Assembly (NCBI GenBank): GCA_047602905.1
Contig: JBLKOP010000002.1
Span: forward strand, 79,381-143,380
DNA length: 64,000 bases
Direction: 5' to 3'
Source: Candidatus Woesearchaeota archaeon
GTDB lineage: Archaea > Nanobdellota > Nanobdellia > Woesearchaeales > SKIA01
Positions 33,323 to 38,339 of this stretch are shown piece by piece; the first letter of the stretch is position 1; every line of letters begins with the position of its first letter. The translations under genes were made by a program, and so were the position numbers. The notes under the pieces are model-generated. The model saw nothing but the letters and a program-made list of their open reading frames with translations. It did no database searches and was not told the DNA's origin.

Positions 33323-35209
33323 ATGTTGCTGAATGCTAATCGTCGTCGCTTATTATTATTTCCTCACGAAACCGTTCGTCCTATTCAGGATGAGTTAGTT
33401 ATTGCTGTTGATGAGTCTGTTCGTAAGCGCAAGCACTTAGTCGTTAATGCTCCTACTGGTCTTGGTAAGACTGCTGCGAGTATTGGTCCTGCTGTCGCGT
33501 ATGCTATTGAGAACGATCTTACAGTGTTTTTCTTGACAAGTCGCCACACCCAGCACCAAATCGCTTTGGATACGATTAAGGCTATTGAGGATCGGTATGA
33601 ACAAACGATTCCTGTTGCTAATCTTATTGGTAAGAAGTGGATGTGTTTGCAGGATGGCGTTTCTGGTATGCATTCTGGTGAGTTCGTGCAGTATTGTCGT
33701 CGTTTACGAGAGAACGCTTCTTGTGAGTATTTTGAGAACTTAAAGCGTTCTGGTTCTCTTTCTCCTGATGCTCGTGTTGCTGTTGAGAAGGCTAAGAGCG
33801 CTCCTGCTGCTAGTTCTGTTGTCTCTATTGGTCGCGAGCATTCTGTGTGTCCGTATGAGATTGGGTTGTTAGCTGCTAGGGAGTCAAGAGTTATTGTTAC
33901 GGATTATTTTTATTTGTTTCATCCACGTATTCGTGAGTCGTTCTTGGCAAAGATAGGTAAGTCTCTTGAGGAATCTATTATTATTGTTGATGAAGCGCAT
34001 AACTTGCCTGAGCGCATTAAGGATTTGGCTTCTTCTCGTCTCTCTACGTTTGTTCTTGATCGTGCTGTTCAGGAAGCGGTTGATTTTGAGTACGAGTTTC
34101 CTCAGATTGGTCGTCTTAAGGGGGTGTTGATGGCTTTGGCTAAGGAGGTTGATAAGAAAGCTGGTGAGGGGTTTGTTTCTCGCGAGGATGTTCTTGAGTT
34201 GCTTGGCGAGGTTGATGTGAAGGCTTTGCTTGTTGCGGGCGATCATGTTCGTGAGGAGCGGCGTAATAGCTATATTGCTAGTGTTGCTGAGTTCTTGGAT
34301 GAGTGGCGCGAGGAGGATGAGGGTTTTACGCGTATATTGTCTGTTTCTGATTCTTCTGTTTCTTTGTCTCGCAGGTGTCTTGATCCTGGTGTTGTTTCTG
34401 GTCCGTTGTTTCGTGAGTGTTACGCTTCTGTTCTTATGAGTGGTACGCTTCATCCTACGGTGATGTATTCTGAGTTGCTTGATCTTCCTTTGCGTACGGA
34501 TGAGTACACGTTTCAGAGTCCTTTTCCTTCTTCTAATCGTCTTTCTCTTATTGTTACGAAGACGACTACGAAGTATACTGCTCGTAGTTCCTCTATGTTT
34601 GATGAGCAGGCTTCTGTTCTTGCGGAGATTGCTGAGGCTACTCCTGGTAATGTGTTGGTGTTTGTTCCTTCTTACGCGTTGCTTTCTGAGATTCATGAGC
34701 GTTTTCAAACAATGACTTCTAAGCCGGTGTTTTGTGAGTCTCGGGGTATGAGTAAGTCGGATAAGGCTTCTGTTCTTTCTAAGCTTGAGTCGTATTCTTC
34801 TTCTGGAGCAGTTTTTTTGGGTGTTACTTCTGGCTCGTTTGCTGAGGGCGTTGATTTTAAGGGTGATTTGGCTAAGGCGGTTGTTGTGGTTGGTCTTCCT
34901 CTTGCTCGTCCTGATTTGGAGACGCAGGCGTTGATGAAGTATTATGATAAGAAGTTTTCTCGCGGCTGGGATTATGGCTACGTCTTTCCTGCGTTTAATA
35001 AGGTCTTGCAGAGTGCTGGTCGGGTTATTCGTTCTGAAGAGGAGAAGGGTGCGCTTATTTTTTTGGATGAGCGCTATGCTTGGGCTAATTATCAGCGGTG
35101 TTTTCCTCAGACGTGGCAGTTAGTGCAAAGTGATTCTCCTGGGGATGTTGTTAAGGAGTTCTTTGGTGTTTCTTCTCAAAAAAAGGCTTCTTCTGATTGG
35201 TTCTCATAG
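33323..35209 (+). CDS. XPD/Rad3-family (DinG-like) Fe-S DNA helicase
   Basis: Walker A NAPTGLGKTA, a 4-Cys Fe-S insert (C..C..C...CPYE), a DEAH box IIIVDEAHNL, and C-terminal helicase motifs. Confidence 0.85.
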   Translation: MLLNANRRRLLLFPHETVRPIQDELVIAVDESVRKRKHLVVNAPTGLGKTAASIGPAVAYAIENDLTVFFLTSRHTQHQIALDTIKAIEDRYEQTIPVANLIGKKWMCLQDGVSGMHSGEFVQYCRRLRENASCEYFENLKRSGSLSPDARVAVEKAKSAPAASSVVSIGREHSVCPYEIGLLAARESRVIVTDYFYLFHPRIRESFLAKIGKSLEESIIIVDEAHNLPERIKDLASSRLSTFVLDRAVQEAVDFEYEFPQIGRLKGVLMALAKEVDKKAGEGFVSREDVLELLGEVDVKALLVAGDHVREERRNSYIASVAEFLDEWREEDEGFTRILSVSDSSVSLSRRCLDPGVVSGPLFRECYASVLMSGTLHPTVMYSELLDLPLRTDEYTFQSPFPSSNRLSLIVTKTTTKYTARSSSMFDEQASVLAEIAEATPGNVLVFVPSYALLSEIHERFQTMTSKPVFCESRGMSKSDKASVLSKLESYSSSGAVFLGVTSGSFAEGVDFKGDLAKAVVVVGLPLARPDLETQALMKYYDKKFSRGWDYGYVFPAFNKVLQSAGRVIRSEEEKGALIFLDERYAWANYQRCFPQTWQLVQSDSPGDVVKEFFGVSSQKKASSDWFS

Positions 35210-35682
35210 AATGCGTTGAGTTCTTGCTGTATTTTGGGTAGTTCTTTCTTGAATACTTCTTGTAGGTGCTCTGTTTCTTCTTGGTAAGCGTATAGTTTTC
35301 GTACTGGAAAGAATGTTGTGTTGTGTACTGGTATGTATATCCATTGTTCTGTTCGCTTGTATTGTTTAGTGATGTCTGCGTGTGTTATTGCGTCTATCCA
35401 CTAAATAACTTGTTGTTGTAAGTTGTGTTTTTTACTTGTGTTTAGTGCTAGTGCTGTTTTGTTCTCTAAGAGTTTTATGAGTGCTAGGGGTGTTGTTTTT
35501 TCGTGTATGATTATTCCGTTTTGGTATTGGCTTGAGTCTTTGTTTAGTACGTGCAGGAAGTATTTTTCTGCTTCTTCACACACGTGTACTTCTTTGTGAA
35601 AGAAGCTGTCTTCTAGTGTTTTGTTGTGTGTTTGTAGTACTTTTTGTTGTACCCATTTGGTTGGTGTTGCGTTTTCTTGCAT
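35176..35682 (-). pseudogene. ORF interrupted by one in-frame TAG at 35401-35403 (93 + 75 codons)
   Basis: The 93-aa ORF 35401..35682 continues in the same frame after the TAG for another 75 codons to a TGA at 35176, overlapping the XPD 3-prime end. No family recognised. Confidence 0.3.
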
Positions 35683-35818
35683 GTTTGTGTGTTAGTGGTT
35701 TTTTACTATTTATAAGTACTAATACAAGTATTTTCGCTTTAAACGAAAAAGCCCGTCCAGTATACAAATTACCACATTAATCGACATATTTATATACTAG
35801 GAGCGTCGCTTATCTGGT

Positions 35819-36235
35819 ATGGTTATCCTCTTCGACCAATTCAACCTCCCAGAGAACGTATACGAGCTCATATTCGCAACCGAGCAACAAGTACTCGTAG
35901 GAAAACTCCTCATAGAAGAAATCAAGCAACACGATGGAGAAATGGGAAAAACAGAGATGAGCATGTTCGCAACCCAGCTACACGACGGATTCACCATAGA
36001 AACAGAACAAGACTTCCCCGTACCACTCAAGAAAAAAGCAAAAATCAGCTATAACAAACGACAGTTCTACGACAGAATACTCACGCCCATGAAAACCATG
36101 GGGATGATACAGTACGACATGTACAAAAAAACGTACAAGATAAGTGAGAATTTCAACAAAAACCTCATGAAAATTGGTTTGATGTGGCTGCAAGAAACCC
36201 GCAAACCACCCTTTCCATTCAAAGTAGTCAACTGA
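35819..36235 (+). CDS. Hypothetical protein, 138 aa
   Basis: ORF with a promoter-like TTTATAAG / TTTATATAC upstream. Confidence 0.45.
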   Translation: MVILFDQFNLPENVYELIFATEQQVLVGKLLIEEIKQHDGEMGKTEMSMFATQLHDGFTIETEQDFPVPLKKKAKISYNKRQFYDRILTPMKTMGMIQYDMYKKTYKISENFNKNLMKIGLMWLQETRKPPFPFKVVN

Positions 36236-36283
36236 AACGGCGCACAAGCACAAGCCTTGAAGCGTCGATAGCAGGCCAAACGA

Positions 36284-36451
36284 AGTGAATGAACAATTAC
36301 CTTCAAAACTCTGGGTGCGCTTCTCTCCACTCTCTCACCCACTCTCCAATTATAAGCCCCCAGAGTTTTCTTGCTCATATTTCCTCAGCCGATTCAGGAT
36401 GAGGTGAGCTAACAGCCAAAGCCTTCGGGCTTTGGCACTTTTACATTCACT
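36284..36451 (+). ncRNA. Candidate structured ncRNA (cloverleaf-like: closing helix plus three hairpins, one UUCG-capped)
   Basis: Closing helix AGTGAATG 36284-36291 / CATTCACT 36444-36451. Hairpin 1: AAAACTCTGGG 36305-36315 / CCCAGAGTTTT 36358-36368, with a CT-rich 42-nt loop. Hairpin 2: CCTCA 36383-36387 / TGAGG 36400-36404. Hairpin 3: GCCAAAGCC-TTCG-GGCTTTGGC 36415-36436. The strand call is weak. Confidence 0.3.
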
Positions 36452-36656
36452 GTTGTTTCTGTGTGATCTTGGTCGCCACAGTAACCACAAGCACAATCTC
36501 TCCCCCCCCCACAAAGATGCTTATCTTATACAGTAACATAATTGCCTAGTTCAGGCAGAAACAACAGTTTCTTCTCATCAAGTCCCAAAGTTCCAACAAC
36601 AGAAACCAACCATTACAGTAACTTCGTTGGCTTTGGCAAACAACAACAAACATACC

Positions 36657-36926
36657 ATGAACGAAACAATAGTAACGCACTGCCTAGCAATTTGGCATAC
36701 GCACACAGGAAGCATGCATCAGTCAGACAAAGACTTTTTTGACGCGCACGTACAAACAACCGCGCAAGAATCCTGTGATGAATTCGTAGCGGCACAAGAA
36801 CTCATAACAGCGCGTCTACACGAGTTTGGCCACGAGTATGATGAAGCAATACGTTTAGCTCAAGAACTCGTACGCACCTATGCTCAGCGCTTTGGTGTAC
36901 GCACAGAACAACTTCAAGTAGCGTAG
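36657..36926 (+). CDS. Small hypothetical protein with an H-x-H-x6-S-x2-D (JAMM/MPN-like) motif
   Basis: AIWHTHTGSMHQSDKD resembles the JAMM HxHx7SxxD zinc site, but the upstream Glu/MPN core is absent. The ORF-track start 36627 is TTG, so the ATG at 36657 is preferred. Confidence 0.35.
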   Translation: MNETIVTHCLAIWHTHTGSMHQSDKDFFDAHVQTTAQESCDEFVAAQELITARLHEFGHEYDEAIRLAQELVRTYAQRFGVRTEQLQVA

Positions 36927-37025
36927 TCTCAAATAAAGTTAATCAAAGAACAAAGCTAAAAAATCAAAGATAGTTTATAAATTAAAAAACAAAACTTTAA
37001 TTACTATACTTACAGTACTTACCAT

Positions 37026-37157
37026 ATGGAAACTGTAACAATTCCCAAAGAAGAGTATCGTCGCTTAAAAGTACTAGAAAAAATCGAATGGGAAGTTGTA
37101 GGGGAATTCAAAGAGGCTCTTGATGATCTCCGAGCAGATCGGTTTACAGAGTGCTAG
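37026..37157 (+). CDS. 43-aa ORF with a ribbon-helix-helix-like pattern (possible antitoxin-like protein)
   Basis: METVTIPKEEYRRLKVLEKIEWEVVGEFKEALDDLRADR reads as a beta strand plus two helices. It is convergent with the RelE-like gene and overlaps it by 14 nt. Not in the ORF track because it is under 60 aa. Confidence 0.25.
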   Translation: METVTIPKEEYRRLKVLEKIEWEVVGEFKEALDDLRADRFTEC

Positions 37158-37467
37158 CTATGCGCTGAGCTTCTTTTTTGAAATCTGAGAACATGAGTTT
37201 AATTTCGTCAATAGTTTCTTGCTGATATTTTTTATTGCTTGCATTGACAAGAAAAATGATTTTCAAATCTTTATAGACAAGAAAATACACTCGCTTATCT
37301 CCAATCTTTTTTTCTCTAAAGAACTCATAAGATAATGGTTGACCAATAATCTTTCCTTGCTTTAATTCTTCGATAAAACTATTTAGTTCTTCTTGCTGTT
37401 TTTTTGTTAAGAGCTTACTAATTATTTTAGAAAACTTGTCAATTTTAAACACTCGATATTGATTCAC
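37144..37467 (-). CDS. RelE/ParE-family type II toxin-like protein
   Basis: YRVFKIDKFSKIISKL...GQPLSYEFFREKKIGDKRVYFLVYKDLKIIFLVNASNKK follows the RelE/ParE pattern (Y.i.f...f.K.l.kL...G.pL...l.e.r.g.yRiiY.v...iivl.ighRk). Confidence 0.5.
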   Translation of the reverse strand: MNQYRVFKIDKFSKIISKLLTKKQQEELNSFIEELKQGKIIGQPLSYEFFREKKIGDKRVYFLVYKDLKIIFLVNASNKKYQQETIDEIKLMFSDFKKEAQRIASTL

Positions 37468-37563
37468 AAACCAGTTTATTAATTTCTTTCTTTATAACTA
37501 CACCGAAGAAAACTACTTTGGAAACATAAGAACCATTAAATACGTCTTTTTCCTTATAGGTGT

Positions 37564-37971
37564 ATGGCCACGGTGTTTGATAAAATTCTTGATAAAGAAA
37601 TCCCTAACTATACTGTGTATGAGAACGATTATGCTTTAGCTTTTCTTGATATAAACCCTTCTGTTACAGGACATACCTTAGTTATTCCTAAAGAGCGCGT
37701 AGCGAGTATTGCTGATTTAAGTCCTGAAGCTGCTGCTGGTTTTATTCATGCAGTACAAGAAGTAAATAAGCTACTTAAAAACAAACTTTCTTGTGATGGA
37801 GTTAATCATTTACTTGCTGACGGAGTAAGTGCTGGTCAAGAAGTTATGCACGTGCATATGCATCTTCTTCCTCGCTACAAACAGGACGGAAAACACTTTC
37901 ATCCTGTAGGAAAACAAGTGAGTTTATCTTCTCAGGAGTTTATTGATTTACAAGAGCAACTGCGTTCTTAG
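37564..37971 (+). CDS. HIT-family (histidine triad) nucleotide hydrolase
   Basis: HVHMHLLPR histidine triad and an upstream nucleotide-binding region. Confidence 0.8.
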   Translation: MATVFDKILDKEIPNYTVYENDYALAFLDINPSVTGHTLVIPKERVASIADLSPEAAAGFIHAVQEVNKLLKNKLSCDGVNHLLADGVSAGQEVMHVHMHLLPRYKQDGKHFHPVGKQVSLSSQEFIDLQEQLRS

Positions 37972-38339
37972 TTGTGATCAAGTTTTTTTAGTTCGCGAAC
38001 GCGATCAGCTATGCGCAAGAATTCTGCTAATTCCATCTTCTCTCGAATAGGTAGGTTCAGGCTCATTCCTTCTCCTAGCTCTAACAAAATACTGTTTTTT
38101 TCAGAAACGCTCTCTTCCACTTTTGGCTCTACTGGAGCTGCAGGAGTTGGTTGCTGAACCGGTGCTTGTTGTTGTTCAGTTCTTGGCGGCTGCCATCCTT
38201 GGGGTGGTTGTTGGGGTTGTCCTTGCCAAGCTTGTTGCTGCGTAGGGGGTTGTTGTGCTCCTCCTGCTTGCATCTTTGCTTTTAACTCCTCGATTTTTGA
38301 GCGTGTATCATCGTTCTTGTTTGATCCGAATAATCCCAT
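37968..38339 (-). CDS. Small protein with a Gln/Pro-rich low-complexity core
   Basis: MGLFGSNKND... then QQPPTQQQAWQGQPQQPPQGWQPP..., and a helical C-terminus ELAEFLRIADRVRELKKL. Confidence 0.45.
   Translation of the reverse strand: MGLFGSNKNDDTRSKIEELKAKMQAGGAQQPPTQQQAWQGQPQQPPQGWQPPRTEQQQAPVQQPTPAAPVEPKVEESVSEKNSILLELGEGMSLNLPIREKMELAEFLRIADRVRELKKLDHN

Follow-up and report, generated by a model that had tools for sequence, protein, structure and literature searches.

The window analysed here is the whole 64,000-nt stretch of contig JBLKOP010000002.1 from a Candidatus Woesearchaeota archaeon. At 36236-36656 it contains a gap of about 420 nt between two ORFs on the + strand (35819-36235 and 36657-36926). 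The upstream ORF (35819-36235) encodes a 138-aa winged-helix protein that is highly conserved in Woesearchaeota. A first-pass annotation of the sequence had described this ORF as interrupted by an in-frame stop. We found it to be an intact gene, ending where its 3,673 detected homologues, which have the same length, also end. The protein shows 65-90% identity across thousands of clusters and is without a Pfam domain. The downstream ORF (36657-36926, + strand) encodes an 89-aa protein, has no Shine-Dalgarno sequence and occurs only in genomes that have the long RNA described below: it was found in nine of ten homologous long-RNA loci (the exception is locus L221) and in none of 76 other loci. 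Pfam, NCBIfam, PHROGs, PADLOC and PDB sequence searches with both flanking proteins returned nothing, and fold searches with the two gave only generic winged-helix and helical-bundle matches. Genes for a nitroreductase and an XPD-type helicase, together with a small ORF on the - strand, precede this pair, which is followed by a HIT-family gene and others. The flanking proteins are also carried by contigs of the Logan metagenome assemblies of public sequencing runs, and relatives of the proteins occur in genomes labelled Woesearchaeota or Nanoarchaeota.

The promoter of the 138-aa gene was located at 35760-35796 on the + strand. A GTATAC box (35760-35765) is followed there by a TATA box, TTTATATA (35789-35796), which ends 22 nt before the ATG. 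The arrangement CAGTATAC..GTATAC..CGAAAyATTTATATACTAGT upstream of the orthologous gene was nearly invariant in about 45 loci inspected. With the usual archaeal spacing between TATA box and start, a distance of 22 nt suggests that the mRNA is leaderless. No conserved TATA-like box was seen within the gap or upstream of the 89-aa ORF. Since no separate promoter is visible, the RNA of the gap may be part of the upstream mRNA and not a free-standing ncRNA gene.

A shared ORF was not found in the gap: in the five sequences translated, stop codons occur in all three + frames. In L221, ORFs were called across the RNA, and protein P0123 was called with an extended N-terminus; both are probably artefacts of the gene caller.

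Folding of the intergenic region

The + strand of 36236-36656 had a minimum free energy of -114.1 kcal/mol. Dinucleotide shuffles averaged -84.0 +/- 5.4 kcal/mol (z = -5.56), with 0/100 reaching the native value. The z-score of the - strand was -1.40. A second, independent shuffle set gave -6.1 for the + strand and -1.3 for the - strand. The region had been proposed as structured from its helices, and that proposal held up against dinucleotide shuffles on the + strand only, at z-scores of -5.56 to -6.1. When 11 homologues were folded one by one, their z-scores ranged from -4.1 to -7.2 on the + strand and from -0.9 to -4.0 on the - strand. The folding signal is thus strong and, at -5.56 against -1.40 in the window, strand-specific. 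Over all helices there were 68 G-U cells versus 28 A-C cells, and in the long-range helix H5 the counts were 16 versus 0. Because an excess of G-U over A-C is expected only if the + strand RNA folds, these counts indicate a sense-strand RNA. The region 36236-36656 is a genuine multi-helix structure of sense-strand RNA.

These results bear on the idea that the conserved sequence acts as DNA, as an operator or a replication or recombination signal bound by the winged-helix protein, with the RNA fold incidental. The fold of the adjoining protein is typical of DNA binders, and the GTATAC palindromes conserved in the gene's promoter make DNA-level regulation of the cassette likely; in addition, R3, the hairpin covariance model described below, gives scores on the reverse strand of some canonical hairpins. 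However, both the z-scores and the ratio of G-U to A-C cells favour the + strand, the stem sequences are free to vary while pairing is kept, and arms 40-50 bp apart around an asymmetric conserved loop are unlike operators. We consider a DNA-level element very improbable.

Conserved helices of the long RNA

For comparison, 80 species-level Woesearchaeota genome loci around the 138-aa gene were fetched. Searched with a sequence profile of the gap, only the four closest of these loci (82-90% protein identity) yielded homologues, and six more distinct long RNAs were added via close homologues of the 138-aa and 89-aa proteins. The long-RNA set comprises 11 distinct sequences, namely the window and ten homologous loci. 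Loci L001-L008, from other samples, were identical to the window or nearly so (one mismatch in L008) and were uninformative. The long form adjoining the gene was present in these 11 distinct sequences only; the search of the other 76 loci gave none. In the 11 homologues the gap measures 388-443 nt, counted from the stop codon of the 138-aa gene to the start of the 89-aa gene where this was detected; in L221, where the 89-aa homologue was not detected, the 3' end was placed by eye. When metagenome and viral contigs were scanned for the exact pattern GGTGAGC-N(20-50)-CTGYTGTTYYTGYG, the matches listed were all chance matches, with no profile match among them beyond the pattern itself.

A covariance model built from the window's four closest relatives was used to align all 11 sequences (L220 in part). 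In this alignment, which is fitted to the structure and so inflates pairing, 91.9% of the cells of the four-way junction were paired, compared with 77.5 +/- 1.2% in shuffles and at most 52% in slid controls. Twenty-eight of the 42 pairs in the closing helix and the three hairpins that it encloses were changed on both sides (14.4 +/- 2.3 in shuffles, 0/500 of which reached 28, and at most 11 in slid controls), so the four helices for which compensatory changes had been called for do show them. On a plain MAFFT alignment of the 11 sequences, 91.6% of the cells of H2 and H5 were paired, with 27 double-change cells versus 10.8 +/- 2.6. When folded separately, the 11 homologues reproduced H1, the closing helix with H2-H4, and H5 from differing sequences.

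All the helices listed in the first-pass annotation were present where it had placed them, and most of them belong to the conserved fold. The conserved part of the RNA begins 2-5 nt past the 138-aa stop codon, with the 5' hairpin H1 (36238-36267, + strand), the loop of which is GCACAAGC-like. A hairpin at the H1 position was predicted in all 11 homologues folded separately, and compensatory changes were seen in a 5-sequence alignment. Next is the 5' strand of P0 (36270-36283, + strand), an end-closing helix with its partner at 36622-36636. P0 was seen only in the window's four closest relatives, where it could close the whole RNA in competition with H6. It was part of the minimum-free-energy structure of the window, L224 and L226, with differing sequences (GGCCAAACGAAG/CUUCGUUGGC versus CCGGACCAACAA/UUGUUGGUCGG).

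The core of the RNA, described earlier as cloverleaf-like, proved to be a four-way junction made of a covarying closing helix and H2, H3 and H4. The closing helix (helix 1 of the model) pairs AGTGAATG at 36284-36291 with CATTCACT at 36444-36451 on the + strand. Six of its 9 pairs were changed on both sides and 86% of cells were paired; it also appeared in the separate folds of the homologues. H2 has an 11-bp stem, AAAACTCTGGG / CCCAGAGTTTT (36305-36315 / 36359-36369, + strand), around a 43-nt CU-rich loop. H3 is a CCUCA / UGAGG hairpin at 36383-36387 / 36400-36404 (+ strand) with covariation: five of the 7 pairs of helix 5 carried double changes and 98.5% of cells were paired. H4 is a perfect 9-bp hairpin, GCCAAAGCC-TTCG-GGCTTTGGC (36415-36436, + strand). 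As helix 6 it had 10 pairs, 9 of them with double changes, and 98.9% of cells were paired. The UUCG-capped perfect hairpin is therefore a genuine covarying helix, though the sequence of its loop is not fixed and varies between homologues. The motif GGUGAGC (36403-36409, + strand) is nearly invariant and single-stranded. GGUGAG was found in 11/11 homologues and the last C in at least 90%, with U in L220; no conserved pairing partner of GGUGAGC was found. A pseudoknot between the GAGGUGAGC segment and the H2 loop was rejected, the duplex energies being no more favourable than those of shuffled loops in 11/11 sequences.

Downstream of the junction, the CTGTG/CACAG hairpin proposed at 36459-36481 was not conserved, and its 5' arm belongs to a 13-bp long-range helix that had been overlooked, H5 (36449-36461 / 36556-36568, + strand). 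We have therefore dropped the former in favour of H5. On the plain MAFFT alignment, 100% of H5 cells were paired in 11/11 sequences and five pairs showed double changes. The H5 domain (36449-36568) encloses an invariant GGUCGCC (36471-36477), two copies of ACAGUAAC (36478-36485 and 36530-36537) and a C-rich tract (36497-36510) that includes a C9 run (36502-36510). The last domain is the bulged hairpin H6 (36585-36597 / 36626-36636, + strand), with a large loop containing ACAGAAAC and a further ACAGUAAC (36615-36622); a second copy of GGCTTTGGC lies at 36628-36636. A hairpin equivalent to H6, with unrelated stem sequences and two CAGYRAC loop motifs, was present in 10/11 homologues (absent from L009). 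Each long RNA has three to five ACAGUAAC-like motifs, and in the window four AGTAAC lie within 200 nt, compared with 25 on the + strand of all 64 kb. The conserved unpaired elements of the long RNA are GGUGAGC, GGUCGCC, the ACAGUAAC-like motifs and the C/U-rich loops.

Two pairs of helices are mutually exclusive: the closing helix and H5, which share 3 nt (the end of the 3' strand of the former and the beginning of the 5' strand of the latter), and P0 and H6. Like a riboswitch, in which a structural change that depends on a ligand acts on an expression platform, or like a protein-responsive leader, the RNA might thus sense a signal for the 89-aa gene, with the junction as sensor and the overlapping helices as switches. 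The 89-aa gene was detected at all long-RNA loci but L221; conservation extends to the strands of the junction and to both members of each exclusive pair; and in 7/11 homologues a GC-rich hairpin and then a U-rich tail stand just upstream of the ATG. We nevertheless regard a sensing leader as improbable. The overlaps are short (3 nt) or confined to four close relatives, the start codon is free in both conformations, and no Rfam riboswitch matched. Furthermore, the core hairpin is older than the 89-aa gene, and the gene that it accompanies is the upstream one, as described in the next section.

A related hairpin in other Woesearchaeota

Model R2, built from the 11 long versions only, was searched in the 76 other loci of about 8 kb on both strands. 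It gave 22 further matches (E 0.002-6), 21 of them on the + strand shortly past the stop codon of the orthologous gene. Taken singly these matches are marginal; their shared position is not. They correspond to the position of H2, which suggests that H2 is homologous to a widespread hairpin located after this gene. A motif-plus-fold scan placed such a hairpin in 64/80 loci. A hairpin model, R3, matched 69 of the 80 Woesearchaeota species loci at E < 0.01; 50 of the 69 matched loci overlap its seed, and 18 lie outside the seed. Elsewhere in the 645 kb of the same loci R3 gave no significant match. The window matched at 36301-36381 with 29.2 bits (E 7.7e-5), this stretch being itself a row of the R3 seed. 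The reverse strand of some canonical hairpins was also seen to score.

The canonical hairpin has a stem that is typically GCUCCC.../...GGGAGC with many compensatory variants, an A-run on its 5' side and a U-run on its 3' side. Its loop is 35-45 nt long and contains the near-invariant motif UUCUcUAACCACCCUCCCC; the H2 loop of the window, CUUCUCUCCACUCUCUCACCCACUCUCC, is a diverged form of it. On a MAFFT alignment of 54 sequences, the canonical stem showed 67 double-change cells versus 23.5 +/- 4.9. The longest U-run of the canonical copies averaged 4.2, and 44% of them have 5 or more; in the long-RNA clade it was 1-5, a modest difference. We define the family as a sense-strand hairpin whose stem covaries, whose loop contains a CCACCCUCCCC-like motif and which lies at most a few hundred nt past the gene's stop codon; the window region has each of these features. 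From these comparisons, H2 (36305-36369) is the local copy of an older element that sits directly after the 138-aa gene. How widespread this element is in Woesearchaeota is a point not visible from a single sequence.

The motif ACAGUAAC was not enriched after the gene in the 76 other loci (0.24 per kb versus a background of 0.19 per kb). As it is near background there, it was ruled out as a general feature of the post-gene region.

The near-invariant loop and the highly conserved character of the four extra domains suggest a role more specific than that of a spacer, e.g. as an RNP or a trans-acting RNA. The molecule may be an independent stable ncRNA, either released from the 3' end of the mRNA by processing or transcribed separately, that acts in trans or as an RNP scaffold. 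Acting in trans, its exposed C/U-rich loops (CUCUCCAC and CUCUCCCCCCCCC) could pair with G-rich, Shine-Dalgarno-like sequences; as an RNP scaffold, its repeated ACAGUAAC motifs could bind or sequester a protein. The invariant loop, these repeated motifs and the end-closing helix would fit such an RNA better than they fit a 3'UTR. On the other hand, no promoter or processing signal was identified in the region, the composition of the C/U-rich loops is in line with the G-poor bias of the + strand, and ACAGUAAC is not enriched after the gene in other lineages. An approximate complement of the loop motif occurs once in the window where 1.6 are expected, which is not significant. We see a stable ncRNA as the main rival of the explanation favoured below, possible but rather doubtful.

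Comparison with known RNA families

With Rfam 15 at gathering thresholds, the only match in the whole window was a tRNA-Pro outside the region. ARAGORN likewise found no tRNA or tmRNA in the region, the tRNA-Pro at 1512-1584 being its only match in the window. When cmscan was run with lax filters over 36100-36800 at E <= 10, it returned only two chance matches to vertebrate lncRNAs, and at E <= 1 it returned none in nine homologous loci and none in eight canonical-hairpin loci. The earlier proposal of an undescribed RNA, with its class left open, agrees with the lack of any Rfam 15 family match in these covariance-model searches. The element was not found described in a full-text literature search either.

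The archaeal, bacterial and type-T RNase P RNA models of Rfam, which describe a P1-P4 core with the conserved regions CR-I and CR-V, did not match the region or the nine homologous loci. The Archaea_SRP model, which describes helix 8 with conserved internal loops and a GNAR loop, did not match the window, the region or the nine homologous loci. The first-pass annotation had already found no motifs of RNase P and SRP RNA, and we likewise did not see CR-I/CR-V or the helix-8 motifs. The Rfam riboswitch and cis-regulatory leader families were unmatched in the window and in the nine homologous and eight canonical loci. Could the long RNA still belong to a known class from which it has diverged strongly, for example RNase P RNA, SRP RNA, group I/II introns or tRNA-like RNAs? 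At about 370-420 nt, with multiple helices and paired ends, it does resemble RNase P and SRP RNA, and DPANN RNAs are often divergent. Against this stand the lack of any cmscan match with lax filters in the region, nine homologous loci and eight canonical loci, the empty ARAGORN result, and the linkage of the element to one protein gene; moreover, the long form is confined to a narrow clade and so fits poorly with an essential universal RNA. We give this explanation hardly any credence.

The region does not fit a type III toxin-antitoxin RNA (ToxI-like). ToxI RNAs have tandem direct repeats of about 34-36 nt upstream of the toxin gene, whereas the sole recurring unit here is an 8-nt motif with irregular spacing; Tandem Repeats Finder (minimum score 30) returned 0 rows for the region, and neither protein had a PADLOC match. 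Without an Rfam or ARAGORN match or tandem repeats, RNase P, SRP, introns, riboswitches and type III antitoxin RNAs are therefore unsupported. Canonical intrinsic terminators have a GC-rich stem, a loop of 3-8 nt and a U-run immediately behind the stem. A terminator consensus scan flagged only H4 followed by ACUUUUAC; H2 combines a stem and a U-rich tail with a loop of 43 nt.

Discussion

Knowledge of DPANN archaea comes almost entirely from metagenomes, and hardly any of their ncRNAs have been described. The element reported here accompanies one unusually conserved, unannotated winged-helix gene with an unusually conserved promoter in most Woesearchaeota sampled. On present evidence it represents a new RNA family of a familiar general kind, the conserved structured RNA linked to a gene, and not a new kind of system.

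The explanation that we favour, tentatively and at slightly less than even confidence, is that the leaderless mRNA of the 138-aa winged-helix protein carries in this region a structured, non-coding, sense-strand 3'UTR or intercistronic RNA and is read through into the 89-aa gene. Its nucleus is H2: an A-run, the C/U-rich loop between two stem strands, then a U-rich tail. At the canonical loci, the hairpin would generate and shield the 3' end of a leaderless message. Its near-invariant loop would be a specific recognition site for a factor, possibly the winged-helix protein itself, to which adjacency is the only tie. In the lineage of the window, the U-run after H2 is shorter and H2 has become enclosed in the four-way junction with H3, GGUGAGC and H4; behind the junction come about 250 nt of further conserved structure (H5, H6 and the ACAGUAAC motifs) and then the 89-aa gene. 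Given the shorter U-run, transcription would run on through the added domains into the 89-aa gene. The RNA would then most likely be a read-through 3'UTR and spacer that controls how stable the upstream mRNA is and how the 89-aa gene is expressed. The fold and its strand, its conservation and covariation, the gene linkage and the lack of an Rfam match are observations. Of the functional steps, termination or stabilisation, loop recognition, read-through and control of the 89-aa gene are all ones that we infer.

Archaeal U-tract terminators involve aCPSF1 together with the U-tract (PMC8716108). Like intrinsic-type and U-tract terminators, the canonical stem stands between an A-run and a U-run right after a stop codon, at the end of a transcription unit, and canonical copies often have runs of 5 or more U. 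Unlike them, it has a near-invariant loop of about 35-45 nt in place of 3-8 arbitrary nt, it is specific to one gene with no use elsewhere in 645 kb, and in the window H2 is embedded in a four-way junction with more structure following. As a U-tract is all that archaeal termination requires, termination by itself does not account for the hairpin.

Some mRNAs carry gene-specific 3' stem-loops with dedicated readers, such as the histone mRNA stem-loop with SLBP and the CDE hairpins with the ROQ winged-helix domain of Roquin. Like these, the Woesearchaeota element is a conserved 3' hairpin of a specific mRNA with conserved loop nucleotides and a winged-helix protein nearby. It differs from them in organisms, size and loop, and the candidate binder here is encoded by the same mRNA. 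More ambitiously, the hairpin and the winged-helix protein encoded upstream could constitute a new Woesearchaeota-specific RNA-protein system, either an autoregulatory RNP or a stable RNA processed from the 3' end of the mRNA. The 400-nt form would in that case be a multi-domain elaboration of the hairpin, an ncRNA active by itself, and DPANN archaea would have a new class of large structured RNA. We think this unlikely, yet worth stating.

C-rich motifs that pair with Shine-Dalgarno sequences are found in the icaR 3'UTR (the UCCCC motif) and in the C-rich loops of RsaE/RoxS. Like these RNAs, the present one exposes C-rich loops on stable stems, and its location in a 3'UTR matches icaR. Unlike icaR, however, the upstream mRNA is apparently leaderless and so has no Shine-Dalgarno sequence to pair with, and, unlike for icaR and RsaE/RoxS, a complementary target was not found within the window.

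As a testable handle on the function of an unannotated protein family with more than 3,600 members, the element also has a bearing on 3'-end formation and mRNA control in organisms not yet culturable. Covariance models R2 and R3 can be used for annotating Woesearchaeota genomes.

Like OLE, GOLLD, ROOL, raiA and HEARO, all of which are in Rfam, the long RNA is several hundred nt in length and has many covarying helices and conserved junction nucleotides. Unlike them, it is archaeal (DPANN), its long form is restricted to a narrow clade and it is apparently part of an mRNA; it gave no match to any of them. It is similar in length to archaeal RNase P and SRP RNA, and in the closest relatives of the window its 5' end pairs with its 3' end; it differs from both in having no covariance-model similarity and in being clade-restricted. 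What one lineage shows is a simple hairpin grown into a 400-nt multi-domain structure. In other Woesearchaeota, some genomes have two hairpins in tandem, and others have differing extra modules between the stop codon and the hairpin.

Alternative pairing of the 3' strand of the RNA

The strand GUUGGCUUUGG of the long RNA, the ~400-nt form found in close relatives, has two conserved and mutually alternative partners. It can pair with a 5' segment of the RNA to form P0, the helix closing the RNA ends (36270-36283 / 36622-36636), or it can pair locally to form the bulged hairpin H6 (36585-36597 / 36626-36636). Both alternatives covary in the window's four closest relatives, and the P0/H6 pair could be a conformational switch. 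A third copy of GCCAAAG forms the UUCG hairpin H4.

Structured RNA is overlain by gene-caller ORFs or by an N-terminal extension in two relatives (L221, 2071-2704; L225, 3001-3102). The ORFs called there are of 148 and 79 aa, and the extended protein P0123 has 123 aa versus 89. These calls are probably artefacts that arise because the strand is poor in stop codons and in G.

Hairpin variants and extra modules in other lineages

Ten loci carry two tandem C-rich-loop hairpins 3' of the 138-aa winged-helix protein gene (L050, L053, L059, L062, L063, L066, L072, L075, L082 and L085). In L044, L050, L051, L072 and L077, and also in L042, L061, L063 and L084, the stretch from the stop codon to the C-rich-loop hairpin holds lineage-own extra modules: a GCGACAAAGG box, plus CUUCCCAGGAAAAAGAGGUA elements in one or two copies. 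The CUUCCCAGGAAAAAGAGGUA elements are similar to the window's CCUCA/UGAGG hairpin H3 together with the GAGGU motif (in L012, CUUCCCCUUGGGAAUGAGGUGAGC), except that they are found on the opposite side of the C-rich-loop hairpin. In most lineages a short AUCAC(G)-like box is located 5' of the hairpin stem, at a distance of ~2-12 nt in many loci; in the window it reads AUUAC (36296-36300).

Near-invariant promoter

The promoter of the 138-aa gene (35750-35818) is near-invariant in Woesearchaeota, being found at the same position in ~45 loci (L009-L055). From 5' to 3' it consists of two GTATAC palindromes spaced by 5-7 nt, CGAAA and TTTATATA. A spacing of 22 nt separates the end of TTTATATA from the ATG, which implies that the mRNA would be leaderless. 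The palindromes look like a candidate operator, which perhaps is bound by the winged-helix protein itself. The second GTATAC palindrome is degenerate in the clade of the window.

Genomic surroundings

Strand composition bias is extreme across the window (fine profile for 35000-38200), with an AT skew as low as -0.54. It does not track the coding strand: the XPD helicase gene (+) is T-rich and the ligase gene (-) is A-rich. The block containing the 138-aa gene, the RNA and the 89-aa gene (35801-37000) has a skew reversed relative to both flanks.

The 89-aa gene and the HIT gene are separated by a 43-aa ORF (+) and a 107-aa ORF (-) whose end the former overlaps (37026-37467). Similarity of the 107-aa product to RelE/ParE toxins is weak (E 7.5e-4, below the family cut-off). 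Since the HIT gene directly follows the 89-aa gene in L224-L228, without this pair between them, the pair looks like an inserted toxin-antitoxin-like module.
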